Shown piece after piece: positions 19,554 to 61,531 of a stretch of 64,000 bases of DNA. The notes beneath the pieces are model-generated. The model made no database searches and was not told the DNA's origin. It saw nothing but the letters and a program-made list of their open reading frames with translations. The DNA lies in assembly GCA_963755455.1 (NCBI GenBank), contig CAVWJH010000001.1, positions 146,864 to 210,863 of the forward strand, written 5' to 3'. Every line of letters begins with the position of its first letter. The stretch's first letter is position 1. Source of the stretch: an uncultured Verrucomicrobiae bacterium. GTDB lineage: Bacteria; Verrucomicrobiota; Verrucomicrobiia; Limisphaerales; UBA11358. A program made the position numbers and the translations under genes.

Positions 19554-19640
19554 CCAGTCCAACAGTCCAAAGTCCAATGTCCAAAGTCGGCGCAGGTTGT
19601 TGACTTTGGACTTTAGACTTTGGACTTTAGACTTTAGACT
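19554..19640. repeat. Heptamer-periodic hairpin (AGTCCAA units / GACTTTG-GACTTTA units) in a divergent promoter region
   Basis: Left arm cagtccaacagtccaaagtccaatgtccaaagtc and right arm gactttggactttagactttggactttagactttagactt. It lies between the VOC start (19540, minus) and the nusB start (19647, plus). Confidence 0.85.
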
Positions 19641-19646
19641 TGATTT

Positions 19647-35346: not shown

Positions 35347-37056
35347 GTGGCGGAAAAAGACGATTATCTGTTGGATCTGCTGGTTGACCTCGGCTTCACA
35401 AACGCCGGGGAGGTCGCCAAGGCGCGTGCGGAGGCCGGAGCGGCCAACGTGGGCGTGGTGGACTTTCTTGTCGCCAACAAAATCATCCGCCCGACGGACG
35501 TGGCGCAGGCCAAGGCCGCGCAGTTCGGCGCGGAAGTCGTCCACCTCGGCGCGATGCAAATCGAGGACGACGTCATCTCCATCATCCCTCGCAACGTCGC
35601 AAAAAAATACCGCGTCATCCCGCTCTTCAAAGCCGACGGAAAAGTCGCCGTCGCCCTCGCCGACCCCTCCGACCTCAACACCATAGATTCTCTGACACAC
35701 CTGCTCGGCGCGGAAGTTGAAGTGCGCGTCGCCTCCGAACCCGACATCGAAGCCGCGCTCGGCAAGTATTACGGCGGCGAGAAAAAGCGCGTGGACGACG
35801 GTGTCTTCAAGGACGTGATGCAAGAACTCACCGAGTCCGACGTCCACATCGGCGCGCTCGAAGACGACGGCGGCGCCATCGAGGCCGACGCCCCCCTCAT
35901 CCGGCTCGTCAACCAGATCATCACCGATGCCTTCAAACTGCGCGCCTCCGACATCCACCTCGAACCGATGGAAAAGCGCTTCCGCCTGCGCTACCGCATA
36001 GACGGAATGTTGCAGGAAATCAAAGCCCCGCCAAAACGGCTCCAGGCGGCCATCATCGCGCGGCTGAAAATCCAGTCGAACATGGTCATCTCCGAACACC
36101 GCATCCCGCAAGACGGACGCATCCAGACCAAAGCAGGAAACAAATTCATAGACCTGCGCGTTTCCTGCCTGCCCACCAACCACGGCGAAAGCATCGTCAT
36201 GCGCATCCTGGACAAGGAAGGACTGAAACTCGGCCTGCCCGAACTCGGATTTTTCCAGGACGACCAGCAGACATTTGAAAAAGTCATCGGTCTGCCCGAC
36301 GGCATCCTGCTCGTCACCGGACCTACCGGCTCTGGCAAGACCACCACACTTTACTCCTGCCTCCACTTCATCAACCGGCCCGACCGCAAAATCATCACCG
36401 TCGAAGACCCCGTCGAATACGTCCTGGCTGGCATCAACCAGGTGCAAGTCAGCGAACAGGTCGGCCTCACCTTCGCCGCCGCCCTGCGCGCCATATTACG
36501 CCAGGCACCCAACGTCGTCATGCTTGGGGAAATTCGCGACTTCGAGACCGCCTCCATTGCCATCAACGCCTCACTCACCGGGCACCTTGTTTTTTCCACC
36601 CTGCACACCAACGACGCGCCCGGTGCCGTCGCGCGCCTGGTTGACATGGGAGTAAAGCCATTTCTGGTCGCCTCCTCCACGCGCTGCCTTATGGCGCAAC
36701 GGCTCGTGCGCAAAGTGTGCAAGAAATGCGGGCAGGCCTACGCGCCCACGGAAAATGAAATGCGCGCCCTGCAACTCACGCCGGACATGATGAAGAGCGC
36801 CACGCCCATGAAAGGGAGCGGCTGCGGCAACTGCGGCAACACCGGCAACCGCGGACGCTTCGGCATCTTTGAAATTTTTCTGATAGACGACGAGGCTCGG
36901 AAATTGATTTACGACCGCGCACCCACGAGCGTGCTGCGCTCGCGCGCCCGCGAAATGGGGATGCGGACATTGCGCGAAGACGGCATCCGCAAAGTCCTTG
37001 CCGGCCTGACCACGCCCGATGAAGTCATCCGCGCCACCATCGGCGATGAAGCGTGA
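35347..37056 (+). CDS. pilB: Type IV pilus / T2SS assembly ATPase (PilB/GspE family), copy 1
   Basis: N-terminal T2SSE_N-like domain (LLDLLVDLGF...IPRNVAKKYRVIPL), [23 protein letters not shown] (Walker A), VMLGEIRD (Walker B region), LTGHLVFSTLHTND, and a tetracysteine CKKC...CGNCGNTG. Confidence 0.9.
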   Translation: MAEKDDYLLDLLVDLGFTNAGEVAKARAEAGAANVGVVDFLVANKIIRPTDVAQAKAAQFGAEVVHLGAMQIEDDVISIIPRNVAKKYRVIPLFKADGKVAVALADPSDLNTIDSLTHLLGAEVEVRVASEPDIEAALGKYYGGEKKRVDDGVFKDVMQELTESDVHIGALEDDGGAIEADAPLIRLVNQIITDAFKLRASDIHLEPMEKRFRLRYRIDGMLQEIKAPPKRLQAAIIARLKIQSNMVISEHRIPQDGRIQTKAGNKFIDLRVSCLPTNHGESIVMRILDKEGLKLGLPELGFFQDDQQTFEKVIGLPDGILLVTGPTGSGKTTTLYSCLHFINRPDRKIITVEDPVEYVLAGINQVQVSEQVGLTFAAALRAILRQAPNVVMLGEIRDFETASIAINASLTGHLVFSTLHTNDAPGAVARLVDMGVKPFLVASSTRCLMAQRLVRKVCKKCGQAYAPTENEMRALQLTPDMMKSATPMKGSGCGNCGNTGNRGRFGIFEIFLIDDEARKLIYDRAPTSVLRSRAREMGMRTLREDGIRKVLAGLTTPDEVIRATIGDEA

Positions 37057-37154
37057 TGACAAAAATGACCAAACCATAATGACGAATGACCAAAGAATTT
37101 CCAAATGTCCGAATGACAAACAAATTAGTCATTAGGATTTAGTAATTAGTCATT
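37055..37154. repeat. Heptamer-periodic arrays (AATGACC/AATGACG units and their partial complement TTAGTCATT) between pilB and pilT
   Basis: gatgacaaaaatgaccaaaccataatgacgaatgaccaaag ... aatgtccgaatgacaaacaa attagtcattaggatttagtaattagtcatt. Confidence 0.65.
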
Positions 37155-37163
37155 TTATTTTTT

Positions 37164-38288
37164 ATGTCCTATCAAATGTCAGACCTGTTGCAGTTGGTGG
37201 TGGCCGAGGGCGCCTCCGACCTGCACATCCGCGTGGGCATCCCGCCGACAATCCGCGTCCACGGCATATTGCATCGCATCGAAGGACCGCCGCTCAAGCC
37301 GGAGGACGCGGAGGAAATTATGCGCAGCATCACGTCGGAAGAGCATATCCAGAGCACGCGCGAACGCGGCGGCGCGGACTTTGGATTTGCGTTTGGCGAC
37401 GCCGCGCGCTTCCGCGTGAGCGTCTTCAAGGAAAGGGGAAATTTCGCGATGGTGTTGCGGCAGATTCCCAGCAAGCTGCTGACGATGGAGCAGATCGGAA
37501 TTCCGCCCAGCGCCAAGGAACTGCTTTACAAGCCGCGCGGACTTGTTCTTGTCACAGGCCCGACGGGTTCGGGAAAAACGACGACGCTCGCCTCGATGAT
37601 CAACATCATCAACGAAGAGCGCGAAGAGGCGCACATCATCACCGTCGAAGACCCGATTGAGTATTATCACAAGCATAAAAAAGCCGTCGTCACGCAGCGC
37701 GAAATCGGCGTGGACGTGCCGAACTTTGCCGAGGCGCTGCGCCGCGCTTTGCGCCAGGACCCGGACATCATCCTCGTCGGCGAAATGCGCGACCTGGAAA
37801 CGATTGAAGCGGCCATCACGGCGGCGGAAACCGGCCACTTGGTTTTCGGAACGCTGCACACGACGGGCGCGGCGAAAACGATTGACCGCATCACGAACGC
37901 ATTTCCGACGAACCAGCAGGAAATGGTTCGCATCCAGCTCTCGACCGTCATGCAGGCGGTCATTTCGCAACTGTTGATTCCGCGCGTGGACAAGCCGGGC
38001 CGCGTGGCCGTTTTTGAAATCATGGTCAACACGCCGTCCATCGCCGCGCTCATCCGCGACAACAAGACGTTCCGAATCCAATCCGACATCCAAACCGGAT
38101 CGAAATGGGGCATGGTGACGCTCGACTCTTTTCTGATGGACAAATACCAGCAGGGTTTGATCGCGCGCGAGGAAGTGATCACGAAGGCGCAGGACCCGAC
38201 CACAATCCAGGCGAAGTTGCAGGAACTCGAACTGGCGCAGTCCATCAGCGGCGGCGGCAAAAATCCGCCGCAGAACCCGGGCAAATGA
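37164..38288 (+). CDS. pilT: Twitching motility (retraction) ATPase PilT
   Basis: [12 protein letters not shown]..., [57 protein letters not shown] and AIRNLIRE-like AALIRDNK. Confidence 0.9.
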
Positions 38289-38303
38289 TTTTTTATTGAT
38301 AAC

Positions 38304-40010
38304 ATGGCGGAAGAAATTTCAGATCCGTTGCTGTCGCTCATCAGGGAGCGGGACTTGATTGACGACCTGCAATACGAGGATGTTGTTGCCGAACACCAGC
38401 GCAACGCCACGCCCATCATCCAGATTTTGCAGGACATGGGCGTGATGAAGCTCCACGACATCCTGCAGGTGATGGCCGGGGCGCTCGGCACGGAAATTGT
38501 CTCGCTGCGCGACCGGGAATTCCCACCCGAACTCCTGAACATGGTTCCGGCGAACGTCGCGCAGATGTATCGCTGCGTCCCCGTTTCGTGGAGCGGCGAC
38601 ATTTTGCAGATCGCGCTGGCCAATCCGCTGGATCCGGCGCGCGCGGACGAAATCCATTTTGCCGTCAAGCGCGACTTGCAGGTGGTTGTCGCCGATCCGG
38701 CGGAGATTGACAAGACGATTGAACGGCTTTACGGCCAGAGCGAGTCGGAAAATTTTTCCGCAATCCTCAAGGAACTCGGGGCGGACACCGACATCGGGCG
38801 CGAAGCCGCCGAAGCCGGCGACGACGCGGCGGCGGCCGAGGCGCTGGCCGACGCGGCACCGATCGTGAAGTTCGTCAATCTGGTTTTGCAGCAGGCCGTG
38901 CAGGACCGCGCGAGCGACATCCACTTCGAGCCGTTTGAGACGGAATTCCGCATCCGCTACCGCGTGGACGGCGCGCTGTATGAAATGGCTCCGCCGCCCA
39001 AACACCTCGCGCTGCCGGTGATTTCTCGCCTGAAAATCATGGCGAACCTGAACATCTCCGAAACGCGCCTGCCGCAGGACGGACGCATCAATTATCCGAT
39101 GCCCGGCGGACGACAAATTGATTTGCGTATGTCCACGCTGCCGACGCAGTTCGGCGAATCCGTCGTGCTGCGCGTGCTGGACCGTTCGTCCGTGAATCTG
39201 GAACTGGAGTCGCTCGGATTTCCCAAGAGCGTTTTTGATTTTGTGTCCGAGGTGATCCAGCGGCCCAACGGGATTTTTGTGGTGACGGGGCCGACGGGCT
39301 GTGGCAAGACGACGACGCTTTATTCCTGCCTCCGGCGGGTCAATGTGATTGATTCCAAACTGCTCACGGCGGAAGACCCGGTGGAGTTTGACATCGAGGG
39401 CATCATGCAGGTGGCCATCAACGACGCGGCGGGCATGACGTTCGGCAAGGCGCTGCGGTCGTTTTTACGCCAGGACCCGGATATAATAATGGTGGGTGAA
39501 ATGCGCGATCTGGAGACAGCGCAGATTTCGGTGCAGGCGTCGCTCACGGGGCATCTGGTGCTCTCGACGCTGCACACGAATGATTCGCCGGGTGCGGTCA
39601 CGCGCCTGGTGGACATGGGCGTGGAGCCGTTTTTGATTTCGAGCACGCTGATGGCGGTGCTGGGCCAGCGGCTGGTGCGCACGGTTTGCAAAAATTGCCG
39701 GACGCCTTTTGAGCCGACGGAGAGCCAGTTGGAATTGCTGAACCTCTCGCCGCATGATCTGGGGGACAAGACGTTTCATTACGGGCGTGGCTGTTCGACG
39801 TGCAATGACACGGGTTACAAGGGGCGCAAGGGCATTTTTGAGCTGCTGGTTGTCAGCGAGGCGATCCGGACGCTTATCAATGAGCGGGCACCCACGGTGG
39901 TGCTGCGCCAGAAGGCAGTGGAACTGGGCATGGTGACGTTGCGTGAGGACGGGTTGCGCGCGATTTTTGAGGGTGATACGACGATTGAAGAGGTGGTGAA
40001 ATATACCTAG
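38304..40010 (+). CDS. Type IV pilus / T2SS assembly ATPase (PilB/GspE family), copy 2
   Basis: Same architecture as copy 1 ([49 protein letters not shown]...CSTCNDTG) but clearly divergent in sequence. Confidence 0.9.
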
Positions 40011-40168
40011 CGGATGCGGGATATTGGCGAGAACACCGCGAATTTTCATTCCGCATTCAGCACTCGACTTTCCGCGTTTGTAAATTCCAGATTTTGACTT
40101 GCAAGTTGACAGGAGATGGTTGAATGTCAATCATCAGCCAATTGTCAACTGTTTATATTTATTGACTT

Positions 40169-41513
40169 ATGCCTAGATACGATTATGTGGCGCTGGACGG
40201 GCGCGGCAAAGAGCAGAAGGGTTCGATTGATGTCGCCAGCCAGAATGAGGCGATCAGCCGCGTGAAGGACATGGGCTTGTTCCCGACGAAGATCGCGGAG
40301 GGCGCGAAGGTGCAGGACAAGTCGGCGAAGAAGAAGGCGAAGTCCAAGCCGGCGGCCAAGGGCGGCAAAAAGGGCGGCGGGATGAGCATGGAGATCAAAA
40401 TCCCGGGCTTGAGCGGCAGGGTCAAGCCGAAGGTGCTGACGACTTTTACGCGGCAACTGGCGACGTTGGTGGATGCAGGTCTGCCGTTGCTGCGAGGGTT
40501 GCGTGTGCTGGAGAAACAGGAGCGCAATGTGACGCTCAAGAGGATTTTAAGTGAACTGGCTCTGGCGATTGAGGGTGGCAGCACTTTCTCGGAGGCGCTG
40601 GCGCAGCATCCCAAAGTGTTCAACCGGCTGTTCATCAACATGGTCAAGGCGGGCGAGCTGGGCGGCGTGCTGGAAGTTGTGCTTAAACGCCTCGCCGAAT
40701 TTTCCGAAAAGGCGCAGAAGATCAAGGGCAAGGTCAAGGCGGCGATGTTTTATCCCGTGGCCGTGTTGATCGTCGCCACCGGCATCATGATCCTGCTGAT
40801 GGTGTTTGTCATTCCCCGGTTCAAGGACGTTTTTGCCGGCATGAACATCAAGATGCCGTGGTTCACGACGTTTGTGCTGGCCATCAGCGACGCCATCCGG
40901 CTCCACATTTTGCAGGTGTTGGGCTGGCTTGTGGTGGCCGTCGTGATTTTCCTAATCATCATAAAAAAAACAAAATCGGGCCGCTATGTCTGGGACAAGT
41001 TCAAGCTCAAGATGCCCGCGCTCGGCCCGGTCATCAGCAAGGTCGCCATCTCGCGCTTCACGCGCACGCTTGGCACGCTCGTCAGCAGCGGCGTCCCGAT
41101 TTTGCAGGCGCTGACGATCGTGAAGGAAACCGCCGGCAACGTCATCATCAGCAACGCCGTCAGCAAAGTCCACGAAAGCGTGAAGGAAGGCGAAACCATC
41201 ACCGCGCCACTCGAGGCCTCCGCCGTTTTTCCGCCGATGGTCGTCAGCATGGTGGACGTCGGCGAACAGACCGGTGCCCTGCCCGAAATGCTTTTGAAAA
41301 TCGCCGACAACTACGACGAAGAGGTGGACAACGCCGTCGCTGCCATGACTTCGCTGCTCGAACCCATCATGATTGTGCTTTCTGGCAGTCATCGTCGGCA
41401 GCATCGTGATCGCCATGTTTTTGCCCCTGATTGCGATGATCACGCAAATGAGCGGCGACAATGGCGGCAGTGTCGTGGCGGAGATTAAACGTCGCATCAT
41501 CATATTTTCTTAA
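40169..41513 (+). pseudogene. pilC: Pilus/T2SS platform protein PilC/GspF, one frameshift in a T-run near 41380
   Basis: Two GspF repeats (FTRQLATLVDAGLPLLRGL...; FTRTLGTLVSSGVPILQAL...). After LLEPIMIV the frame changes to LAVIVGSIVIAMFLPLIAMI..., with stop at 41511-41513. An unusual Lys-rich insert (KSAKKKAKSKPAAKGGKKGGG) sits near the N-terminus. Confidence 0.85.
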
Positions 41514-41530
41514 AAAGCCGCAGAAATCCG

Positions 41531-41575
41531 TTGACAAACACCATGCTCAAGTGTAAATACAATGTAATTACATTG
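41531..41575 (+). promoter_or_regulatory. Sigma70-like promoter (TTGACA-17-TAAATA) followed by a perfect 16-bp palindrome CAATGTAATTACATTG upstream of brnT
   Basis: TTGACA at 41531-41536, TAAATA at 41554-41559, palindrome at 41560-41575. This is the position expected for an autoregulatory TA operator. Confidence 0.45.
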
Positions 41576-41605
41576 CATGGGCGTATTAAATACAATTAGC
41601 TCGCC

Positions 41606-41890
41606 ATGGAGTTTGATTGGAATAATCCGCCCTTTGAAATGGATGGTTCTTTGACTCAACGGGAAATTGAAGAATCCTTTGAAGACCCGTTTGCCGTCCG
41701 GCTGCTGCCCGACTCGCCGAGGTTTGGCGTGCAGGCGCGGTTTTTCAATCTTGGAATGTCCGCCGGCGGCATCGGGGTTTTCAGCGTGTATCGGACAAAC
41801 GGCCGCTCCGTCCGCGTTTTGCACGCGCGCACGTTTGCTCCGGAAGAAAGATTTTTTTACCAGCGAAAAATGGACCAGACGCTTTCGTGA
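41606..41890 (+). CDS. brnT: BrnT family toxin (DUF497)
   Basis: FDWNNPPFE...TQREIEESFEDPFAVRLLPD...RFFNLGMSAGGIGVFSVYRTNGRSVRVLHARTFAPEERFFY. Confidence 0.8.
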   Translation: MEFDWNNPPFEMDGSLTQREIEESFEDPFAVRLLPDSPRFGVQARFFNLGMSAGGIGVFSVYRTNGRSVRVLHARTFAPEERFFYQRKMDQTLS

Positions 41891-41895
41891 AAAAT

Positions 41896-41971
41896 CATTC
41901 TCGTCGTCATTCTCGTCCTCGTCCTCAAATTTTTGGTTTGAAGATGAGGATGACGATGAGTGCGGGAATGA
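41896..41971. repeat. Imperfect periodic hairpin (CTCGTC/TCATTCT-type units) in the brnT-brnA spacer
   Basis: tcattctcgtcgtcattctcgtcctcgtcctca ... tgaagatgaggatgacgatgagtgcgggaatga. By hand, about 24/33 arm positions are complementary. Confidence 0.55.
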
Positions 41972-41983
41972 GATGCAAAACAG

Positions 41984-42259
41984 ATGCGAACTTTTGCCAA
42001 CTGGGAAGACGTGCCGATTTTCGACAGCGAAAACGCGGAGTCGGATTTCTGGTCGGAGAACCGGCCCGACCTGCGGCTGATGGAGGCGGCCACGGCGGGC
42101 AGCGCCGAGGCGTCCGAGTCCGTGACCATCACGCTGCGGATTGACCCGCGGATGCTCGCGCGCATCAAGCGGCTCGCGCGCGCGCGGTATCTGAACTACC
42201 AGAGCATGATCAAGCAATGGTTGAGCGAGCGGATGGAAGACGAATTGCGCGACAAATAA
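41984..42259 (+). CDS. brnA: BrnA-like antitoxin (CopG/RHH-type C-terminus)
   Basis: ...ESVTITLRIDPRMLARIKRLARARYLNYQSMIKQWLSERMEDE. Confidence 0.7.
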   Translation: MRTFANWEDVPIFDSENAESDFWSENRPDLRLMEAATAGSAEASESVTITLRIDPRMLARIKRLARARYLNYQSMIKQWLSERMEDELRDK

Positions 42260-42269
42260 TTATATGAAA

Positions 42270-42299
42270 AGTGACAAGTGGCGAGTGACAAGTGGCGAG
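42270..42299. repeat. Heptamer array (GTGACAA/GTGGCGA) upstream of the first pseudopilin
   Basis: agtgacaagtggcgagtgacaagtggcgag. Confidence 0.75.
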
Positions 42300-42302
42300 A
42301 AA

Positions 42303-43011
42303 ATGATGAGCAACAAGCGGCAAGTGATGCGCCTGAACAAAGCTCATCACTCCGGCTTTCACCCTCATTGAACTGCTCGTCGTCATCTCCATCATCGGCG
42401 TGCTGGCCGCGTTCACCCTCACGGTTTTGAAATCGGTGAAAAGGCACCAATACATTTCCCACACGCAGGCGGAAATGGGGCTGCTGGAAACCGCCATCCA
42501 GCGCTACCACGACGCCTACGGATTTTATCCGCCGGGCAATGGCAGCGGCGATCCACGGGTCAACCAGCTTTATTACGAACTGGAAGGGACGACTTTTAAT
42601 CCGGCAAATAATTCATACACAACCCTGGATGGCGGCTTGCAAATCAGCTCCAACAACCTGAACAAGGCGTTTGGCGTCGGCGGCTTCATCAATTGCACCA
42701 GGCCCGGCTCCGCTGAAGACGCTCATTCCGCCCAAAATTTTCTGCCCGGCTTGAAACCAAGGCAATATAATGCGGTTACAAACCCGTCGCCTGGCGGTCC
42801 GCTCGTCACCATCCTCACCGGTTCGGTTGGCGGGCCGGATCAAAATTACAAGCCGTTCGGTGCGTCTGGCCTGAATCCCTGGCGCTACGCTTGTCCCGGA
42901 ACGAACAACCCCAGCTCGTATGATTTGTGGATTCAACTGGTGATCAATGGGCAAACCAACCTCATCTGCAACTGGAGCGGGCAGGTGCGGATCAACAGCC
43001 CGCTGCCGTGA
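42303..43011 (+). pseudogene. Prepilin-type N-terminal cleavage/methylation domain protein (pseudopilin 1), one frameshift in a T-run near 42357
   Basis: MMSNKRQVMRLNKAHHSG|FTLIELLVVISIIGVLAAFTL... is restored by removing one T from ggctttcacc (compare ggcttcaccctcatcgaactg at 43325). Confidence 0.75.
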
Positions 43012-43037
43012 AAATTTTTATGCGCGACGATAAAAAA

Positions 43038-43126
43038 AGTGACAAGTGGCAAGTGACAAGTGACGGGAAAATGGTGCGCCGGGGAAAAAACCCGTCACTC
43101 GTCACTCGATCACTCGATCACTTGAC
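43038..43126. repeat. Heptamer-periodic hairpin (GTGACAA/GTGGCAA arm and CACTCGT/CACTCGA arm)
   Basis: agtgacaagtggcaagtgacaagtgacggg ... cccgtcactcgtcactcgatcactcgatcacttgac. Confidence 0.85.
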
Positions 43127-43294
43127 AATGCGCGGCCAAATCCCGTGGCCGTGGACTGGCACGACTGCGCGTGGTCGCCGCAAATCGTCGTTCAGACGCC
43201 GTCGCGAACGCAAAACTGGTTCGAGACAAAACAATTGCCCGCACCGCCGCAAATTCTCCATACTCCGCGCCGCAACCGGACCGATTTCAAAACC

Positions 43295-44093
43295 ATGAAA
43301 ACCATCCTGCCATCGTCACGCCGCCATCGCGCCGGCTTCACCCTCATCGAACTGCTCGTCGTCATTGCCATCATCGCAATTCTGGCGGCGATGCTGCTGC
43401 CGGCCATCCCGTATGCCGTGAACCTCGCAAAGAAGAAAAAGGCGCTTATCGAAGAACAGGGGATTGTCACGGCCATCGAAGGTTACGATTCGGAATATGG
43501 CCGCTTTCCGGTTTCGACCAACGCGCAAAATCAGGCCGAATCAAACGCGAGGTCTCCCAAAAACAACCCGGATTTTACTTATGGGGGAACGTTATTAGCG
43601 GAACGACGGTAGGCACTCAAATTTCCGGCGTAGTCTTAACGAATAACGAGGTGATCGCCATTTTGATGGATATGCAAACTTATCCCGGCAGCGGAGCTCC
43701 AACCATAAACAACAATCACGTCAAAAATCCGAAGCAGACAAAATTCCTGAACGCCACGATGACAAGCGACCCGACGTTGCCGGGTGTCGGCCCGGATCTG
43801 GTCTATCGCGACCCGTGGGGCAATCCCTATGTCATCAGCATGGATCTGAATTACGACGACCAGTGTGAGGATGCGTTTTATTGCCAATGGGCTGTTTCTG
43901 AGAATCCACCGGGAGGCAGCAGCCAGTCTGGTTACAATGGACTGGTCAATCCATATCATGGGCCGCAGGGGTGAAGGATCGTTTTCAATATCACGGCAAG
44001 GTCATGGTCTGGTCCGCCGGTCCGGACAAAAAAATTGTTAATGGGCCGGCAAATCAAGGTGTCAACAAAGACAATGTTTTGAGCTGGCAGTGA
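43295..44093 (+). pseudogene. GspG-like major pseudopilin (pseudopilin 2), two frame disruptions (near 43590 and 43970)
   Basis: MKTILPSSRRHRAG|FTLIELLVVIAIIAILAAMLLPA..., later DPWGNPYVISMD and a tail ...VMVWSAGPDKK...VLSWQ*. Confidence 0.8.
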
Positions 44094-44100
44094 AACTTCC

Positions 44101-44121
44101 ATTTACGATTTACGATTCATA
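44101..44121. repeat. Short heptamer array (ATTTACG, about 3 units)
   Basis: atttacgatttacgattcata. Confidence 0.5.
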
Positions 44122-44136
44122 CTGAGGTTTCACGAT

Positions 44137-45016
44137 TTGCAGAAAATCGTCGGAGTCCGTTTCCATCAATCATCAACATTCCCGCGCGCCTTCACGCTGA
44201 TTGAACTGCTGGCTGTGATTACGATTTTGGGCATCATCGCGGGGCTGGCGGTTCCGGCACTGAAGGAGCTCGGCAAATCAAACGGAAACATCGGCGCGTC
44301 ACGGCAGTTGCTCGCCGACGTCGGGCGTGCGCGGCAACTGGCCATGGCCGACCACACGACAGTCTATATGATTTTCGTCAAAACAAATTTTTGGATGACG
44401 CCCAATTTTCCAAATTTTTGGTGGAACAATCCGTTGATGACCACCGCCGAGAAAACCGTGGCGACCAACTTGTGCGACAAGCAATTGACGGGTTACACCT
44501 TTGTCAGCCTGCGTTCGGCGGGAGACCAGCCGGGGCGCGTCACGGTGCGTTATCTGGCACCGTGGCAAAATCTGCCGGCCGGCACCTTCATCGCGCCGCA
44601 AAAATTTCAGCCTCCCTCCAGTCCGCCGTTCCACATTCCGGGTTATGATCCAGCCATCCAATATTTACGGCTTCAACATCACCAACAACATTCCGTTTCC
44701 AACCGAAGACAGCCCGAAGTCGCCGGTTTTATATCTTCCGTATATCGCCTTTAATTATCTTGGACAGCTTACATCCGACGGGCAGAACCTTGCCGCCAGC
44801 GATGAATACATTCCCCTCGCGCAGGGCAGTGTCTTGCCGGCGATAAACCCGGCAACCAAGGCATTGATCCTCGAGGCCGCTCCCGCCGGTTCGGCGTCCA
44901 TTTTAGAAACTCCGCCCGGCAACAGCGGCATTGGTAACAACAACCTTTCCTACAACATCGTCCACATTGACCGGCTGACGGGGCGGGCCACCTTGGAATT
45001 CTACAAAATGAAATAA
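44137..45016 (+). pseudogene. Pseudopilin 3 (GspH/FimT-like), one frameshift near 44645
   Basis: ...SSTFPRA|FTLIELLAVITILGIIAGLAVPAL...SRQLLADVGRARQLAM, then a frame change to ...IYGFNITNNIPFP...RLTGRATLEFYKMK*. TTG start. Confidence 0.7.
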
Positions 45017-45030
45017 TTCAGGAACTCAAT

Positions 45031-46386
45031 ATGAAAAAAACATCGCAATTGATCATGGGGTTGATTTTGTGCGGGGTTCTGACTACCTCCGCCACGGCGC
45101 AATCCATCTATTCCACACCTTACACTTTTACCACCATTGCCGGAACCGCCGGAAACAACGGCGGCAATGACGGCACAAATGGCACGGCGCAACTCTACTG
45201 GCCGGAGGGCATCGCCGTGGACACCAATGGCAATCTCTATGTGGCGGACAACTATGAGGACACCATCCGCAAGGTCGCGCCGTCCGGCACAAACTGGGTG
45301 GTGACCACCATCGCTGGAACTGCTGGAACCAGCGGTGGCAATGACGGAACAAATGGCGCCGCACGCTTCATCGAACCGGTCGGCATCACGATTGACGGAA
45401 CAGGCAACCTGTATGTGGCGGATTCTGGCAACGACACCATTCGTGAAATCACGCCGTCGGGGACGAACTGGGTGGTGACCACCATTGCCGGAACCGCCGA
45501 GATTGGGGGTTTTGCCGACGGGACGAATGGCAGCGCACAATTCAACGACCCATCCGGCATCGCGGTGGATACCAACGGCATCCTTTATGTGGCCGATGCT
45601 TACAACTGCACCATCCGTGAAGTCGCGCCGTCGGGGACGAACTGGGTGGTGACCACCATTGCCGGGACGGCGACGAACATTGACGGGATGGTGCCGAACT
45701 ATGGCAGCGCCGACGGGACAAATGGCGCCGCGCAGTTCTCCGGGCCGTCCAGCATCACGGTTGACGGGTCGGGCAATCTGTATGTGGCGGACACCTACAA
45801 CGACACCATCCGCAAGATTGCACCGTCGGGGACAAACTGGGTGGTGAGCACGATTGCGGGCCAGGTTGGAAACAGCGGCATCGCCGACGGGACGAATTTT
45901 GCCGCGCAATTCTACTATCCATCCGGAATCGCATCAGATCGCTCCGGCAATTTATATGTGGCCGATACCTACAACTACACCATCCGCAAGATTACGCCGT
46001 CGGGGACGAACTGGGTGGTGAGCACGCTGGCGGGGGTGGCTGGCATCAATGGCAGCAACGACGGCACCGGAACCAACGCGCTGTTTTACTATCCTTATGC
46101 CGTTGCGGCGGACGGCGCGGGACATCTTTTTGTGGGAGACACCATCAACGGCACCATCCGGCAGGGCTGGATCGCGGCGATTCCAAATCTGAAGGTTGTC
46201 CTGACCGCAACGAACAGCGTGGTTGTTTCCTGGCCCAATCTGGGCGGCTACACGCTGCAAACCAATTCGGATTTGACGGCGACCCACTGGGCCGGTTACG
46301 GCGGCTCTGTCACGACCGTCAACGGCACAAACAGCGTCACCCTCTCGCCGCCGTCCGGGAAACTGTTTTTCCGTTTGACGAATTGA
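45031..46386 (+). CDS. Secreted six-bladed NHL-repeat beta-propeller protein with a ~70-aa C-terminal beta-sandwich-like domain ending FFRL
   Basis: Signal peptide MKKTSQLIMGLILCGVLTTSATA. Six units of ...G(I/L)AVDxxGNLYVAD..NDTIRK(I/V)xPSGTNWVV(T/S)TIAGTAG..G..DGTN.... The C-terminus reads VVVSWPNLGGYTLQTNSDL...WAGYGG...GKLFFRLTN. Confidence 0.85.
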   Translation: MKKTSQLIMGLILCGVLTTSATAQSIYSTPYTFTTIAGTAGNNGGNDGTNGTAQLYWPEGIAVDTNGNLYVADNYEDTIRKVAPSGTNWVVTTIAGTAGTSGGNDGTNGAARFIEPVGITIDGTGNLYVADSGNDTIREITPSGTNWVVTTIAGTAEIGGFADGTNGSAQFNDPSGIAVDTNGILYVADAYNCTIREVAPSGTNWVVTTIAGTATNIDGMVPNYGSADGTNGAAQFSGPSSITVDGSGNLYVADTYNDTIRKIAPSGTNWVVSTIAGQVGNSGIADGTNFAAQFYYPSGIASDRSGNLYVADTYNYTIRKITPSGTNWVVSTLAGVAGINGSNDGTGTNALFYYPYAVAADGAGHLFVGDTINGTIRQGWIAAIPNLKVVLTATNSVVVSWPNLGGYTLQTNSDLTATHWAGYGGSVTTVNGTNSVTLSPPSGKLFFRLTN

Positions 46387-46392
46387 AGATCA

Positions 46393-47199
46393 ATGAAATT
46401 TCGCCCGCAACATTATCATCCGCAATCGGCCTTCACGATGATCGAGGTCGCCATCAGCCTGGCGATCATCGGCATCGCGCTCGTCGGCATCATCGGCGTG
46501 CTGCCGCTGGGATTGAACACGCAGCGCGTCAATCGCGAGCAGACCGTCATCAACCAGGACGCGACCGTTTTCATGGAGGACATCCGCAACGGCGCACGCG
46601 GCGCGGATGATTTGACGAATTATGTTTATGCCATCGTGATTACGAAAGCCGCCAGTCAAAACGTCTATATCAACCCGACGCTTGCCGGCGCGATGGGTTT
46701 TTCCACTGCCATTTTGCCTACGACGCCGCCCATTCAATCGTATCCCATACTGACCAACGGCGCGAACATTGTCGGCCTGTTGAGCACGCCGGAATTTTTG
46801 AACGTGGACGGCGGGATTGCGGACAGCACTTACACGGCGGCGATGAGCAATCACATTGTGGCCAGCGTCCGCTCCATCAACGGGCCGGCGTTTGAAAAAC
46901 CGCCGCAGGACAACGCCATTTTGAAGCAGGATTCATTCAGCTACCGCATTTATTGCGTCAACGCGCCGGTGGCGGTTGATACCAATGCAGTCGCCAATCC
47001 CGGTTACACGCGCCAGCTCGCCGCCAACCTGCACGACCTGCGCCTGACGTTTCTCTGGCCGGTGCTGCCAACCGGCAAACTGCCGGCGCAGCCCTTCCTT
47101 GCGACGTATCGAACCCTCGTCGCCGGGCAGGTTGCGCAGGACGCCGTCAACACCAATTTGTTTTTTTACCAGCCGCAATCATTCACCACCGCGCCGTGA
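46393..47199 (+). CDS. Pseudopilin 4 (prepilin-type N-terminal domain, GspI-position)
   Basis: MKFRPQHYHPQSA|FTMIEVAISLAIIGIALVGIIGVLPLGL. Confidence 0.8.
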   Translation: MKFRPQHYHPQSAFTMIEVAISLAIIGIALVGIIGVLPLGLNTQRVNREQTVINQDATVFMEDIRNGARGADDLTNYVYAIVITKAASQNVYINPTLAGAMGFSTAILPTTPPIQSYPILTNGANIVGLLSTPEFLNVDGGIADSTYTAAMSNHIVASVRSINGPAFEKPPQDNAILKQDSFSYRIYCVNAPVAVDTNAVANPGYTRQLAANLHDLRLTFLWPVLPTGKLPAQPFLATYRTLVAGQVAQDAVNTNLFFYQPQSFTTAP

Positions 47200-48152
47200 A
47201 AACAAAAACAACAGTGGCAAGTGGCAAGTGGCAAGTGGCAAGAGCCTCGTCGCGAGGATTTTGTCTTGTCACTCGTCACACGTCACTTGTCACCCGCTCC
47301 GCCTTCACTCTCATCGAGGTGATGGTGGCGGTGGCGCTGCTCTCGCTCATCGTCATCGCGCTGATGGCGGTGTTCAACAGCACGCAGGCGGCGTTCCGCG
47401 CGGGCGTCACGCAGGCGGGCATTCTGGAGGGCGGGCGCGCGACGATGGATTTGATCTCGCAGGATTTGAAGGAGATGGCGCCGTCGGACGGTGTCAGCAA
47501 TGGCGTGGTGAATTTTTACGCCTACGTCGTCAGTTCGCCCGGCCCGCTTGTCCAGACGCTGACCGCCAGCAGCCGGTCGCGGACAAACGTCCTGGAAACA
47601 ATTTTTATCTTGAGCCGCGACAACCAGACTTGGATCGGCACGGGCTATGTCGTGGACACTTCGGCCACGGCGTCCATCAATCCGCTCTACCGTTTCACCC
47701 CCGCCGATTTGCCGCCGCGTCCAGCCCCGTGGCAGATTTTTACCAATTTTCTCGCCAACAGCACGCTTCCGATTTCGCAAAACAACACCAACATGAGCCA
47801 TCTGCTGGACGGCGTGGTGGATTTTCGCGTGCGCGCCTTTGACACCAACGGCGGGCGGATGAACAATCAAGTTGTTTTTACCAGCGGTCAGTTCACCACC
47901 AACGAAAATGTTTATTATCTGCCGTCCGGTTCCGGCTCCGGCTTTGGCGAGACGGGCTTTGTCATGTTCAGCAACACGCTGCCCGCGTCCGTGGAGATTG
48001 ACATGGCCACGCTCGAAGACCGCACCTTGCAGCGCGCCGAATCGCTGCCGAACAACCTGCGCACATCCTATTTGCAGGGTCAGGCAGGCAACGTCCAGGT
48101 TTTCCGCCAGAGCGTTTCCATTCCCAATGTTGACCCGTCCGCCTATCAATGA
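47196..48152 (+). CDS. Pseudopilin 5 (GspJ/PulJ-like) with an unusually long leader
   Basis: GTG overlaps the upstream stop (GTGA). MKTKTTVASGKWQVARASSRGFCLVTRHTSLVTRSA|FTLIEVMVAVALLSLIVIALMAVFNSTQAAFR. Confidence 0.8.
   Translation: MKTKTTVASGKWQVARASSRGFCLVTRHTSLVTRSAFTLIEVMVAVALLSLIVIALMAVFNSTQAAFRAGVTQAGILEGGRATMDLISQDLKEMAPSDGVSNGVVNFYAYVVSSPGPLVQTLTASSRSRTNVLETIFILSRDNQTWIGTGYVVDTSATASINPLYRFTPADLPPRPAPWQIFTNFLANSTLPISQNNTNMSHLLDGVVDFRVRAFDTNGGRMNNQVVFTSGQFTTNENVYYLPSGSGSGFGETGFVMFSNTLPASVEIDMATLEDRTLQRAESLPNNLRTSYLQGQAGNVQVFRQSVSIPNVDPSAYQ
47213..47293. repeat. Heptamer-periodic hairpin (GTGGCAA x4 arm / TTGTCAC-type arm) lying inside the pseudopilin 5 leader-coding region
   Basis: agtggcaagtggcaagtggcaagtggcaag agcctcgtcgcgagg attttgtcttgtcactcgtcacacgtcacttgtcacc. 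Confidence 0.85.
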
Positions 48153-51100
48153 AAATAAAAAGTGACAAGTGGCAAGTGACAAGTGATAAGCGCCGTTGCC
48201 CGGCGCGCGGTGGAACTTTTGCCGCCCATCACTCGTCACTTATCACTCGCCACTCCGAAAACGGCGTCGCGCTGATCATCACGCTCATCCTGCTGGCCGT
48301 GACACTCGTCATGGCGCTCGCGTTCCTGGCCATCAGCCGCCGCGAAAGCGGTTCCGTGACGACCGCCGGCGAGACCGCCACCGCGCGCCTTGCCGCCGAC
48401 GCCGCGCTTGCCAATGCCGAGGCGCAGGCCGTGGCCGGCATCCTCTCCACGACCAATCCCTACGATTTCGGCCTGCTCGTCTCGACGAACGCCCCGCCGT
48501 TGAATTTCAACAACGGTTTGGGCGACTACACCAGTTTGCAAATCAGCCCGCGCCCGCCGGTGTTCATTCCGCAAAACGGCACGAACGATTTTCGTTTTTA
48601 CCTCGACCTGAACCGCAACGGGCATTTTGACTCCAACGGCATCGTGGCGGATGTGGACAACACGGGAGTGACGAATGGAAATTTCTCCTTTGAAACCGGC
48701 GACCCCGAATGGATCGGCGTGCTGGAGCATCCCGACCAGCCGTATGGGCCGGACAACCTGTTCATCGCGCGCTACGCCTTCATCGCCCTGCCCGTCGGCA
48801 ACGCGCTCGACTTGAATTACATTCACAATCAGGTTCTTGATGAACGTTCTTCGACGGTAAATCCACCGAAAGGAATTAACAACAATCCTGAAAATGATTT
48901 ATATTTTCGCAACCAAGATATTGGTTCCTGGGAATTGAACCTCGCGGCATTTCTAGCCGATGTAAACACGAATCAGTGGGGAAGAATTATTGATCCGCCG
49001 AACATCATCGGCAACGGCAGTGGCTATTACACTTACAACGAAACTTCAGGAAATCCGAATCATGGCGCTGCCTTTGACGACGCCCGCGCGCTGCTCGCGT
49101 ATCGTTACGCGAACAATTACAACACGCTTGCCTGGGTCCAGACCCTTTTCGGCAACACCGGCGCGACGGCGTTTCGGAACGATGGCATTGACGGCTATTC
49201 CGACGGGCCGCTGCAGACGACTTTTGACACCAATGAGGATTTTGTTTTCAGTAGCGCCAAGGACATTCCCACACTGCCGTGGGCGGGCGCGGACAGCACC
49301 AACCATTTCTTCACGCCGTCGGATTTGTTCGACCCGGCGAAAAGCTCGCCGGCTTTCACCAACCGACTGCTCATTGCCGACGCGCAAACGGACACCTACG
49401 ACCGCTACACCTATTACCGGCTGCTCTCGCAGCTTGGCACGGACTCCGATCCGGAATCGGGGCAAGATGAATTTGAACTACGACAATCTCGATCGCGGCT
49501 TCAACGGCGTTTTGAACACCAACGGAACCGCGAGCGCGACGAATTTTGTTCCCTGGACGCCGCTGGGATTTTTCACCAACGCCGCCGACCGGATGCTGCG
49601 CGAATATACTGCGAACTGGATCAATCAAAACTACGCCGGTTTCACCAACACTTTCGGCGTCTCGACGACCAGCGCCTTTGGCGTGACGAACATCCCGGTT
49701 TATGTCAATGGACGGTTTGTCTATACACCCGCCGTTCACCGCATCCTCCAACTGGCCGCGAACATTTACGACGCGACGGTGAGCAACAGGAAGAACGGCT
49801 CGCCCGATTATCCCGATGTCTTCCGTCCGCTGTTCAGCAAGGATGCGGCGGGCGATGTTTTCATCTCCGGCTACACGAACTTGAACAATGGCGGCGTTCC
49901 CAATACTGTTTCAGGGCCGGGCGATCCACAGCTTTCCCAGCCATTTGATGTAGCGTATATTTCCGGCTTGTCCGGCGTCATTACCAACGTGCCGGACAAC
50001 ATCTACGGCGTGCCGTGGATCATCGGCGCGAAGAAAGGCTTCCCGAACTTCAACGAAATTTCGATGGAGAACAGTCTGGCCGTCACGCGGCGGCTTCAAC
50101 TGACCCGCACGACAAATAGTTATGTGCCGGTCATCACCGGCACGAACCAGATGTATACGATGAGTTTGAGCAGTTCAATCGGGGTCGAGCTGTGGAATTC
50201 TTACAGCTCCAATTATCCCGGCACGATCCAGATTGACGTGAATGAAAATGCTTGGACGATGATCACCAATTACGATCGGGGTGCGCGTGAATGGAAAGTG
50301 AATCCATTTCCATTTACAACCAACAATTTTATTGCTCCCTATGTTCCTTATGTAATCAATTCATGGCCGGGATCCGGCGTGGGTTGGAGAAGCAGTGGCA
50401 GTCCGAATACCGCCTCATTTGTCCCTTTTGTTTTTACCGGCCCCACTCTGACCAACTCGGTTTATTATTCGTCTTATTATGCAGGCGCGCCAGGCGTGCC
50501 TGCCGGGACTGATTTGTTTTCCACAAACAGCTTGCCGAGTCCCGTTCCTTGGGAACCTACTTCGACGGATGGGAACGGTTTTCATTTCCCGCAGTTTGGA
50601 GTGCTGATAACGAACCGGTTGCAGGTCTTCATGCTGGATGTCAGTGGCGGCGTGTATCACGTCATTGATTATGTCCATTTTGAAGGGCCGGACAGCCCCT
50701 TCAACGTGAATGCAAGTCTGGTTGATAATGACGGCCTGAATAATTATGTGGGCGTGTGGGATACAAATTATCCAACTGGCAGCGTGCCGCCAGCCGGAGT
50801 GACTTATGGCATCTTGAATCAAATCAGGATTTCAAAAAGTGGTGCGCCAGATCAGGATTTAGATGGTTTGTGGCAGGCAGATCCCGAAGCGGTTCCCCTT
50901 GGCGGAACCATAGCCCAACAGCAGGCATTTTTTCAGGCATTTTTCCTGCCGGGCAATCATTCTGGCAGCACAACGAATTTGGAATTAAGCGTGGAAGCGC
51001 CTTACGCGCCGACTCGTTATATTTCACAATATACCACCTGGCAGGTTAATGATCCGCTCGTGCATTATCTGGCCAGCGACATTGATGCGCCGCCACTAAA

Positions 51101-52211
51101 TAACACATCCATACCGCAACCCGGTTTGAATCACTACAATTTCCCCATCACGAACGGATTGACGAGCCTTAACTTGGGGCAATTGAATGATCGTTATATG
51201 CCGTGGGGTGGCAACTCGAAGCTGGCGGCTGAAGGACAGGCGTTGCAATTTGACCCAAATGCCTACAATTCGGCGGAGCGCGATCCGCTGGCGTCTTCAT
51301 CGGACAACTGGGATTTTCCGACGAACAAACTGCCGACGACCGGCTGGCTGGGTCGCGTGCATCGCGGCACGCCGTGGCAGACGGTCTATCTCAAGTCGTC
51401 GCCGATAGACACCGCCACATGGGCGACGTGGACGGGCGATACGCAGACAAGTTTCAACCAATACTTCGACGCGGCCAATTCCGCGCCGGCGCAGGACCGT
51501 CTGCTGTTCGATCTTTTCACGACGGCGTTCAACGACAACGCCACGCGCGGCCAGCTTTCGGTCAACGTCGCCGCCAACGATCCCGATCCGGCGGCGGGAC
51601 TCGCGGCGTGGTCGGCGTTGTTGAGCGGCGTCGTTGCGCTGACAAACAATCCGTTTGCCGGAACCGTGACCAACACAATCATCCAGCCTGCCGGGATTTA
51701 CGATGCGACATTGCCGCTGACCAACCAGCCGCCGCTCGCGCAAATTGTCGAGGGCATCAACAGCGGGCGGACAAACTTTGTGGGCGCGGACAGATTGCGC
51801 GGCTCGTTTGAGCACGTCGGCGACATTTTGTCCGTGCCGCAATTGACGGACAAGTCGCCATTCATTTCCATCATTCCGCAAACCGTTGACGGCGCTGGAC
51901 AGATCATACCGCCAGTTTATCCCAACGACGAAGTCATGGAATGGCTGCCGCAGCAGGTGATGTCGCTGCTGCGCGTGGGCACGCCGCGCTATGTGATTTA
52001 CAGCTACGGCCAGGCGCTCAAGCCCGCGCCCTCTCCAAACGGCATTTATACGGCGAATGGGTTGCTGATCACGAATTACCAGATCGTGTCGGAAGCCGCC
52101 ACGCGCGCGGTGGTGCGCTTTGACAGCACGGTGACGAACATCAACGGCACGCTCTCCGTGACGAACAACCGCGCGGTGATCGAGAGTTATAACATTTTGC
52201 CGCCGGATTGA
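48149..52211 (+). pseudogene. Giant GspK/PilX-like minor pseudopilin (~1350 codons), one frameshift in a G-run near 49465
   Basis: ATG overlaps the upstream stop (ATGA). ...HSENG|VALIITLILLAVTLVMALAFLAISRRE... The ORFs 48149..49948 and 48990..52211 join at ...GTDSDPESG|KMNLNYDNLD. Confidence 0.7.
48161..48254. repeat. Heptamer-periodic hairpin inside the GspK-like leader-coding region
   Basis: agtgacaagtggcaagtgacaagtgata ... catcactcgtcacttatcactcgccact. Confidence 0.85.
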
Positions 52212-52214
52212 ACA

Positions 52215-52920
52215 ACCGCCAAGACGCAAAGGCACAAAGATGAAGACAATATTTTGTAGGAGCCGAGGTTACGAGGCTCAAATTAAAAAGTTGGAGACTC
52301 CTTGCGTGGTCTTCTGCATAGCGACGGACTTTGTAAGGAAAACGGTCAAAAACCGCCATTTTGGGATGAATTGCCTCAAAACAACGGGATTATCCAGATG
52401 ACAAACATATTAAAACGCCAATTTCGCTTGGCCGGATGGTCGGGCAACTTGGCCGGATGGTCGGGCAACTTGGCCGGATGGTTGGGCAACTTGGCCGGAT
52501 GGTTGGGCAACTTGGCCGGATGGTCGGACGACTTGGCCGGATGGTCGGGCGACTTGGCCGGACGGTCGGACGACTTGGCCGGACGGTCGGGCGACTTGGC
52601 CGGACGGTCGGACGACTTGGCCGGATGGTCGGGAAACTTACCCGAACGGTCGGGAGATTTAGCTGGAGGGTCGAGCAATATGCGGCTGCGGTTCGATGCG
52701 CCCTGCGCCGAACACTTCGTGCGGACAACTCGTTTGCGGAAGGCGGACGAATTGCTCCGGTCATGCGCGCCAGAAAGTCAACGACGTGGCGTCGTTGACG
52801 GCACGCGAGGCGCGTGCGCTCCCAAAAATTTTAAGGTTTCAATTTTGAAAAATGGCATACAGAGGGTAGTCTATACCAGTAATAATGCCGACTCTTGGCG
52901 CTCTTTGCGTCTTGGCGGTT
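52215..52920. repeat. Intergenic repeat block bounded by a perfect 18-bp inverted repeat (AACCGCCAAGACGCAAAG / CTTTGCGTCTTGGCGGTT)
   Basis: Left copy at 52215-52232 and right copy at 52903-52920. The interior holds a GTAGGAG-type REP (~52255), a 21-bp minisatellite and a CACGCGAGGCGCGTGCGCTCCC REP (~52805). Confidence 0.6.
52428..52679. repeat. Tandem minisatellite, 12 x 21 bp (TTGGCCGGATGGTCGGGCAAC and variants)
   Basis: Twelve head-to-tail units counted by hand. The first ten are near-identical, with patterned variants (GGCAAC, TTGGGCAAC, GGACGAC/GGGCGAC alternation). The last two are degenerate. Confidence 0.9.
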
Positions 52921-52933
52921 AAGTGTTTTATTT

Positions 52934-61449: not shown

Positions 61450-61531
61450 AGTCCAAAGCCCAAAGTCCAAAGTCCAAAGTTGCCGAAACGGGAAATCAAT
61501 CGGCAATCGGCAATCGACAATCGGCAATTGG
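61450..61531. repeat. Two adjacent heptamer arrays inside uvrA (AGTCCAA/AGCCCAA units, then AATCGGC units)
   Basis: agtccaaagcccaaagtccaaagtccaaag ttgccgaaacggga aatcaatcggcaatcggcaatcgacaatcggcaattgg. The uvrA frame changes from 0 to 2 somewhere across this stretch. Confidence 0.8.

Follow-up and report, generated by a model that had tools for sequence, protein, structure and literature searches.

A probable type IVa-like pilus cluster of Limisphaerales with two diverged PilB ATPases and a toxin-antitoxin-like pair ahead of its pilin genes

The question considered here is which machine is encoded by a long run of pilus-like genes in an uncultured Verrucomicrobiae bacterium (Limisphaerales, UBA11358). 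The DNA analysed, referred to below as the window, is a stretch of 64,000 nucleotides from contig CAVWJH010000001.1 of assembly GCA_963755455.1 (positions 146,864 to 210,863 of the forward strand), and the genes in question occupy its positions 35347 to 52211. An earlier note, made from the sequence alone, had described them as a mixture of a type IV pilus and a type II secretion system (T2SS), with a duplicated assembly ATPase, a PilT-type retraction ATPase, an embedded toxin-antitoxin (TA) pair and an atypical set of pilin-like genes. The locus probably encodes one half, the cytoplasmic motor and the filament, of a type IVa-like pilus able to retract, in a gene cluster that is standard for the soil and freshwater Verrucomicrobia of Limisphaerales and Pedosphaerales. 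It is apparently an undescribed form of the type IVa pilus, and literature searches returned no description of this locus or of its lineage-wide peculiarities. The surface machinery of Verrucomicrobia, which abound in soil, peat, freshwater and the gut, has hardly been studied.

All the listed genes are present on a single strand and in the order that the earlier note had given (Table 1), and every sizeable gene from 34263 to 60587 is on the + strand. Their Pfam and NCBIfam identities uphold the assignment to a pilus or T2SS-type locus. A scan of one genome per species yielded 565 relatives of the PilC protein, of which the best 80 were fetched with their flanks. All 80 loci come from metagenome-assembled genomes (MAGs) labelled Limisphaerales, Pedosphaera, Verrucomicrobia subdivision 3 or similar, with PilC identities of 70-86%. 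The order pilB1-pilT-pilB2-pilC-brnT-brnA-pilin1-G-H-I-J-K, where the letters stand for the positions of GspG to GspK, recurs in 27 of the 33 loci that are at least 19 kb long, and the motor core stands alone in five of the 33. The complete Pedosphaera-like chromosome L084 has the full order minus the TA-like pair only. Orthologs of pilin 1 are found in every relative locus that bears the pilin block. The gene order appears to be the strongly conserved standard of the clade, and the two assembly motors, the TA-like pair and the giant putative tip protein appear to be lineage-wide traits, not those of a one-off hybrid. The LacI-family regulator, which the earlier note had counted as the first member of the cluster, has no syntenic counterpart upstream of pilB1 in the relatives. 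It was rejected as a regulator of the operon, as neither it nor the genes upstream of it are syntenic there.

The assembly ATPase is indeed duplicated, and both copies combine T2SSE and MshEN domains. PilB1 and PilB2 have 568-569 residues each and are 44% identical to each other. The best matches of both in the Protein Data Bank (PDB) are the solved structures of Geobacter and Myxococcus PilB, with 478-514 bits (the highest score being that of PilB2 with Myxococcus PilB), compared to 386-424 bits for GspE. Both ATPases thus look to be of the PilB rather than the GspE type. They keep the Walker A motif, the Walker B glutamate in GE(I/M)RD, the His box and the four-Cys site. Beside Walker B, the PilB1 of this genome has RQAPN (window 36370-36420) and PilB2 has the canonical RQDPD. 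The variant RQ(A/S)PN is present in 28 of 28 B1 sequences from across the phylum, and RQDPD is present in the B2 sequences and in other paralogs.

The duplication had been taken for an oddity of this locus, but the sampled loci and a phylogenetic tree point to a two-PilB core that is phylum-wide and ancient. In a sample of 121 Verrucomicrobiota genomes, 119 have a strong PilB match, and most of the genomes listed have another match, either right beside the first or some 1.1-1.3 kb downstream of it on the same strand. Twenty loci were fetched from other families. Seventeen of them have pilB1-pilT-pilB2, followed by pilC in 15 of these 17, and the remaining three have pilB1 and pilB2 side by side. 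In L101, L102 and L103, which are from other families, pilB1 adjoins pilB2 and pilT is not between them, or is after pilB2. In a maximum-likelihood tree of 56 sequences the B1 clade (support 100/98) and the B2 clade (100/100) are separate and have mirrored internal topologies. Two further paralogs of the same genome fall outside B1 and B2 on long branches, so that the rooting is tentative. The separate, mirrored clades imply, therefore, that the gene was duplicated before the sampled lineages of the phylum diverged, and that both copies have been retained. If this is true, the two ancient extension ATPases would be a natural test case for the way in which PilB hexamers share one platform.

The earlier note was right that the window contains no secretin, no prepilin peptidase and no alignment genes such as pilM; profile searches of the genome place these elsewhere. 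The system need not be incomplete. The genome has six secretin matches, none of them in the window. On the contig of the window, at a distance of some 500 kb (C1:692848-697733), there is a gene for PilM (78 bits), three small membrane or lipoprotein genes, two of which have sub-threshold matches to PilN and to GspM/PilO, and a secretin gene (160.9 bits). A second group running from PilM to a secretin is found on contig C2. The genome has a single Peptidase_A24 (prepilin peptidase) locus at C1:785438-786059, which is in two frames here and intact in a complete relative genome. In that relative the operon is at 2.61-2.63 Mb, the secretins are at 0.05, 1.87, 2.43, 3.09 and 3.15 Mb, and the peptidase is at 3.76 Mb. 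Because the complete relative has the same scatter, the dispersed layout seems to be the usual state in the lineage, and many type IVa pilus systems share it. The pilM-to-pilQ-like operon may serve this locus. The earlier note had named, as the finding that would overturn it, a standard cluster of the clade with all partners immediately outside the window; the cluster is standard in its order, and its partners are dispersed.

The small genes between pilC and the pilins form a TA-like pair, as had been proposed. The second protein is recognized by the CopG_antitoxin family PF12441 in the open reading frame (ORF) given in Table 1, and not in the frame at 41887-42144 that the earlier note had chosen. 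Its score on BrnA PF14384 is just 18 bits (cut-off 26.1), and 43 columns are invariant across 16 orthologs. The first protein is linked to the BrnT family through some of its orthologs, 80-85% identical to it, which have a precomputed PF04365 assignment and the JGI name DUF497. The pair behaves as a fixed and strongly constrained part of the operon and not as a casual insert. It occupies the same site in 52 of the fetched relative loci and is single-copy in this genome. Among the relatives its amino acid identity is 66-93%, compared to 31-61% for the pilins. The median ratio of nonsynonymous to synonymous substitution rates is 0.07 for brnT, 0.13 for brnA, 0.09 for pilT, 0.12-0.14 for pilB and pilC, and about 0.3 for the pilins, these values being rough owing to the saturation of synonymous sites. 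Purifying selection on the pair appears to be as strong as that on pilT.

A promoter-like site precedes the pair. It consists of TTGACA at 41531-41536, TAAATA at 41554-41559 and the palindrome CAATGTAATTACATTG at 41560-41575. Seventeen genomes share TTGAC(A), the 17-nucleotide spacing, TAAATA and the palindrome, all invariant or nearly so, whereas the spacer and the flanks vary freely. In seven genomes the distance from the brnA stop codon to the first codon of mature pilin 1 is 44-50 nucleotides, which leaves space for a leader peptide only, and in L044 the candidate start of pilin 1 overlaps the brnA stop. Because the brnA stop is so near the mature pilin 1, the pilins very probably share the brnT promoter. 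An Rfam scan of the operon found no riboswitch and no other RNA family.

In its toxin-first order, with a small DUF497-like protein followed by a protein of a ribbon-helix-helix antitoxin family, the pair resembles BrnT/BrnA of Brucella abortus (PF04365 with PF14384 or PF12441), and a palindrome overlapping its own promoter, here a predicted operator, is likewise typical of this type II TA system. Unlike such modules, this pair appears to be vertically inherited, exists in one copy under strong constraint and is joined physically to a pilin operon; its toxin-like protein in the window is below the level of Pfam detection. These properties bear on the possibility that the pair is an ordinary selfish TA module, which lodged once between pilC and the pilins, is kept by addiction and has no role in the pilus. 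The gene order, the protein sizes, the antitoxin family and the palindrome would all be expected of such a module, and L084, with its full pilin block and no pair, indicates that the pair is not essential to the machine. A selfish module is nevertheless rather unlikely, given a single copy fixed at one site in all 52 loci, a constraint equal to that on pilT (with the same reservation about saturation), and a promoter that very probably serves the pilins too, since the gap to pilin 1 can be as short as a leader peptide. The pair is probably a domesticated regulator that controls the pilin genes. If confirmed, a TA pair at the head of a structural operon would illustrate clearly how such a module can be domesticated for regulation.

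The pilin block, from which the notion of a pilus/T2SS mixture came, contains five class III pilins of the FTxIE type, whose mature N termini are at 42355, 43334, 44188, 46429 and 47301. The N_methyl and TIGR02532 models score above their cut-offs on the five pilin genes. DPWGNPY was correctly read in the GspG-like protein (43810), and an ortholog of this protein from L044 aligns with positions 10-158 of the Myxococcus PilA model, an alignment over 150 residues that fits a major-pilin role. The G/H/I/J/K labels given to the genes in the earlier note reflect gene order, gene size and sub-threshold matches. On the NCBIfam models of T2SS pseudopilins the scores are 30-54 bits for GspG (cut-off 88.85), 23-32 for GspH (80) and 18-24 for GspJ (64.85). 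The H-position ortholog reaches 18.1 bits on Pfam GspH (cut-off 21), and the K-position protein has no T2SSK match in the Pfam scan. The best hints for the block are N-terminal matches to GspG, GspH, GspJ and the four Verru_Chthon families, all far below threshold. Furthermore, a G/H/I/J/K-type set is no proof of a mixture, because type IVa minor pilins are homologous to GspH-K anyway; with both ATPases closest to PilB, PilT present and the order standard for the clade, there is little left of the mixture.

The likeness to the T2SS order gspG-H-I-J-K nonetheless extends to the relative sizes of the first five pilin-like genes, to DPWGNPY, to a K-position protein without Glu5 and to an adjacent gene for a secreted hydrolase. 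A T2SS-like machine, in which a short G/H/I/J/K pseudopilus drives the giant subtilase (and perhaps further enzymes) out through a secretin and PilT does no more than reset the piston, would account for these features and for the subtilase as the conserved last gene, and the ATPases and the platform protein score nearly as well on GspE and GspF as on PilB and PilC. In Dichelobacter nodosus the secretion of subtilisin-like proteases requires the type IV fimbrial machinery. Such a machine is distinctly unlikely here, however. PilT scores well over its family cut-off, the closest structural relatives of both ATPases are PilB proteins, and no GspG, GspH, GspJ or GspK model gives more than a sub-threshold score. 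Pfam scans of the ORFs of the window found no GspC, GspL or GspM gene near the operon (for GspC and GspL the search did not extend to the rest of the genome). The T2SS of this genome could lie in the separate clusters that have an ATPase, a platform and a secretin of their own, and the K-position protein is about four times the size of GspK.

The Verru_Chthon cassette (TIGR02596, TIGR02598, TIGR02599 and TIGR02600) is also similar, being a four-gene set of pilin-like genes from Verrucomicrobia that ends in a protein of about 1300 residues, and its families give the best, though weak, NCBIfam matches of the H-, I-, J- and K-position genes. Membership was rejected on the scores, which are 20.6-39.8 bits for Verru_Chthon D (cut-off 70; the H-position ortholog has the 39.8 bits), 21.5-21.9 for B (51.4), 22-25 for C (256.5) and 18.7-21 for A (332.3). 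The matches cover the N-terminal 35-70 residues only, and a search of the genome found no true member of TIGR02600 (Verru_Chthon A).

Type IVa pili, by comparison, share with the locus PilB-type and PilT-type ATPases together with PilC, in the same local order as the pilB-pilT-pilC of Myxococcus xanthus and Geobacter, pilins with class III signal peptides, and pilMNOPQ-like and peptidase genes at separate loci. The four minor-pilin positions and a large tip-associated protein recall the Pseudomonas fimU-pilVWXY1E cluster. Several features set the locus apart from these pili. Two deeply diverged PilB proteins bracket pilT, one of them with RQAPN in place of RQDPD; the protein in the tip slot is pilin-like, has about 1350 residues and has no recognized fold; a giant subtilase stands in the place of PilY1; a TA-like pair heads the pilin genes; and Ala at the -1 position of the prepilin cleavage site is as frequent as Gly.

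This last feature had been noted for three of the five pilins and treated as an oddity. The count is four of the five, and Ala at -1 is genuine and lineage-wide, not an anomaly of the operon. A six-frame motif scan of the genome found 48 FTxIE-type sites, of which 24 have Ala, 21 Gly and three other residues. In the loci of the relatives Ala outnumbers Gly by 174 to 78, and the two alternate inside every orthologous group. Bacterial leader peptides have been reviewed as ending in Gly (PMC4471445), but PilD cleaves after Gly or Ala, and a motif with [GAS] at this position has been given (PMC3244431), so that Ala is a natural cleavage residue.

The giant GspK-like protein described in the earlier note is real in its size of about 1350 codons, since it is a single ORF of about 1230-1470 amino acids in the relatives, but it is not intact here, being split at 49459. 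It has many residues that are invariant among the relatives, for example the WLGRVHRGTPWQTVYLK block. Past the first 55 residues or so it has no family or PDB match. Its position in front of a giant subtilase suggests that the filament presents or exports a degradative enzyme, and such a link between filament and protease would bear on the feeding of these polymer-degrading bacteria.

From these elements a scheme for the working of a type IVa-like pilus can be proposed. In the motor unit pilB1-pilT-pilB2-pilC, the two anciently diverged PilB-type ATPases would power the polymerization of pilins on PilC, possibly with a division of labor between them, and PilT would power retraction. The second transcription unit would begin at the sigma-70-like promoter overlapped by the palindrome and continue with the BrnT-like/BrnA-like pair and two GspG/PilA-like pilins as candidate major subunits. 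The H-, I- and J-position minor pilins and the K-position protein would prime assembly and presumably sit at the tip, and the pilus may display or export the subtilase. The BrnA-like protein most likely binds the palindrome and, with the BrnT-like protein, would act as a gate on pilin expression. Other parts of the chromosome would supply the secretin, the alignment proteins (PilM-N-O-P-like) and a prepilin peptidase that in this lineage would accept both Ala and Gly at -1. A bolder version, offered as a tentative possibility, is that two non-redundant PilB motors, one of them with the fixed RQAPN change beside Walker B, have stayed next to each other since the origin of the phylum and that the BrnT/BrnA-like pair is a domesticated module that has become the on/off switch of the entire pilin-tip-protease unit in Limisphaerales and Pedosphaerales. 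In this version a TA-type repression, possibly bistable or released by stress, would gate piliation as well as the display of the protease.

Several results weigh against a type IVa-like pilus cluster with a gated pilin unit. The two PilB proteins each score 611 bits on the NCBIfam PilB equivalog and do not reach its cut-off of 675.65, and they have 592.8 and 604.8 bits on the GspE model TIGR02533 (cut-off 630.25); neither is a certified member of either equivalog. The pilC product scores equally on the PilC and GspF models. PilN, PilO and PilP at the C1 locus were assigned by position, size and sub-threshold matches, and at least two other self-contained filament or secretion clusters, at C3:165-177 kb and C4:323-335 kb, have their own ATPase, platform and secretin. 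The globular domains of the pilins are all below family thresholds. A profile of the K-like protein found no relative of known structure in the PDB, and an AlphaFold2 model of its residues 36-640 is too poor for use, with a mean predicted local distance difference test (pLDDT) score of 47.4. The BrnT-like protein of the window has no Pfam hit even at E<=10, its AlphaFold2 model is likewise too poor (pLDDT 61.5) and returned nothing below E=2.6 in Foldseek. Alignments of the BrnT-like and BrnA-like proteins, used as profiles, had no meaningful match in the PDB. A scan of the operon for promoters and terminators gave counts not above the shuffled expectation; for this reason only the brnT promoter is claimed, on comparative evidence. 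Finally, the frameshifts described below could be real.

The earlier note had overlooked that several of the genes are broken by frameshifts. The breaks were located by comparing the window with intact orthologs from three relatives. At least five genes are affected: pilC, the GspG-like gene (twice), the GspH-like gene, the GspK-like gene and the subtilase gene. The frame of pilC changes near 41375, so that its last 45 codons or so are in another frame; with the orthologs, residues 1-404 align in one frame and the tail in another. The GspG-like gene is in three frames, with breaks at a G5 run (43583) and at GGGG (43968), and the GspH-like gene has a single frame change between about 44610 and 44672. 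The GspK-like gene consists of two frames joined at GGGG. The subtilase is split near 54835, at a GGGG run in the overlap of successive ORFs that are in different frames and match Peptidase_S8 positions 1-228 and 200-288; this is probably another assembly frameshift. In pilin 1, whose cleavage-site sequence is TKLITPA|FTLIELL, no ATG, GTG or TTG shares the frame of FTLIELL, and an upstream ATG frame (MRLNKAHHSG...) is off by one base, so that this gene is probably frameshifted too. The G-, H- and K-like orthologs are single ORFs in nearly all relatives. Because most breaks are at G4-G5 runs (four of them) and because genes are broken genome-wide, the frameshifts are probably homopolymer errors of a long-read assembly. 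The proportion of open frame as a measure of assembly quality (62-72% in the genome, compared to a median of 90% in the loci of the relatives) was given no weight, because these loci are rich in long genes and the comparison is unfair.

That the operon is being lost in this organism, with true inactivating mutations in pilC, four pilin genes and the subtilase gene, is highly improbable: at least six or seven breaks in about 13 kb that leave the three ATPase genes intact might suggest it, as might the natural occurrence of slippage at G runs, but zero breaks in the 5 kb of ATPase genes are not improbable at the observed rate, the assembly consists of four contigs with an estimated completeness of just 65.6%, other long-read MAGs of relatives, such as L063, have the same fragmentation, and unrelated genes elsewhere in the genome are split alike, among them the only prepilin peptidase, other T2SSE ATPases and other platform genes. 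The window teaches that split genes and a pilin without a start codon can stem from assembly quality.

Table 1. Features of the pilus locus and its flanks (window coordinates)
Feature	Coordinates	Strand	Evidence
LacI-family regulator	34263..35279	+	Pfam LacI and Peripla_BP_1/3
pilB1, extension ATPase paralog 1	35347..37056	+	T2SSE 442.6 bits, MshEN
pilT, retraction ATPase (PilT/PilU family)	37164..38288	+	TIGR01420 449.9 bits, cut-off 319.1
pilB2, extension ATPase paralog 2	38304..40010	+	T2SSE 441.7 bits, MshEN
pilC, platform protein	40169..41513	+	two T2SSF domains, 198.8 bits
Promoter-like site with overlapping palindrome, internal, conserved	41531..41582	+	comparison of 17 genomes
BrnT-like (DUF497) protein, 94 residues, first gene of the pilin transcription unit	41606..41890	+	
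BrnA-like ribbon-helix-helix antitoxin-type protein, 91 residues	41984..42259	+	CopG_antitoxin PF12441 43.1 bits, cut-off 28
Pilin 1 (mature part from F1), GspG/PilA-like N terminus	42355..43011	+	TIGR02532 27.6 bits
GspG-like pilin with DPWGNPY, candidate major pilin	43295..44093	+	N_methyl 41 bits
GspH/FimU-position minor pilin	44137..45016	+	N_methyl match
Secreted NHL beta-propeller protein	45031..46386	+	NHL 130.7 bits
GspI/PilV-position minor pilin	46393..47199	+	N_methyl 25.6 bits; weak N-terminal matches to Verru_Chthon B and PilV
GspJ/PilW-position minor pilin	47196..48152	+	N_methyl 23.1 bits; weak matches to GspJ and Verru_Chthon C
Giant GspK/PilX-position protein, ~1354 codons	48149..52211	+	pilin-type hydrophobic N terminus without Glu5
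Repeat block between the K-like and subtilase genes	52215..52920	.	TRF
Giant S8 subtilase with P-domain and LamG modules	52895..60587	+	Peptidase_S8

Downstream of the K-like gene, an S8 subtilase gene follows directly or within a few bases in the loci of ten relatives, and it appears to be the conserved last gene of the operon. In the window the two genes are separated by a block of about 700 bp that contains a 21-bp minisatellite at 52427-52654 (10.9 copies, 91% match by TRF). Because the K-like and subtilase genes abut in the relatives, this block seems to be an insertion particular to this genome. The gene for the NHL propeller protein, between the third and fourth FTxIE pilins, is found among the relatives in L049 only and is apparently an accessory insertion outside the conserved block. 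The last 65 or so residues of its product (46190-46386, ending in LFFRLTN) are 31-48% identical to the C termini of at least five other proteins of the genome, which suggests a shared C-terminal domain or sorting signal. A 765-residue protein with NHL and fibronectin-III domains is encoded directly after the pilQ-like secretin (L002 1-1276; C1:690497-692794), so that NHL propeller proteins adjoin pilus genes at two separate loci of the genome.

Peculiar to this window are the damage to its assembly, the inserted NHL gene, the block of repeats before the subtilase gene and the hairpins of heptamer repeats between genes. The last are tandem arrays of 7-bp units (GTGACAA/GTGGCAA, AGTCCAA and others) at 19556-19641, 24325-24566, 42270-42299, 43037-43122, 47213-47293 (the 5' end of the GspJ-position gene), 48160-48254 and 61450-61528. 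They lie between genes across the window, often as inverted pairs that are predicted to form hairpins, and four pilin genes have them within their 5' ends or immediately before them. The pattern GTGACAAGTGRCAAGTGAC has 18 matches, compared to 0.01 expected.

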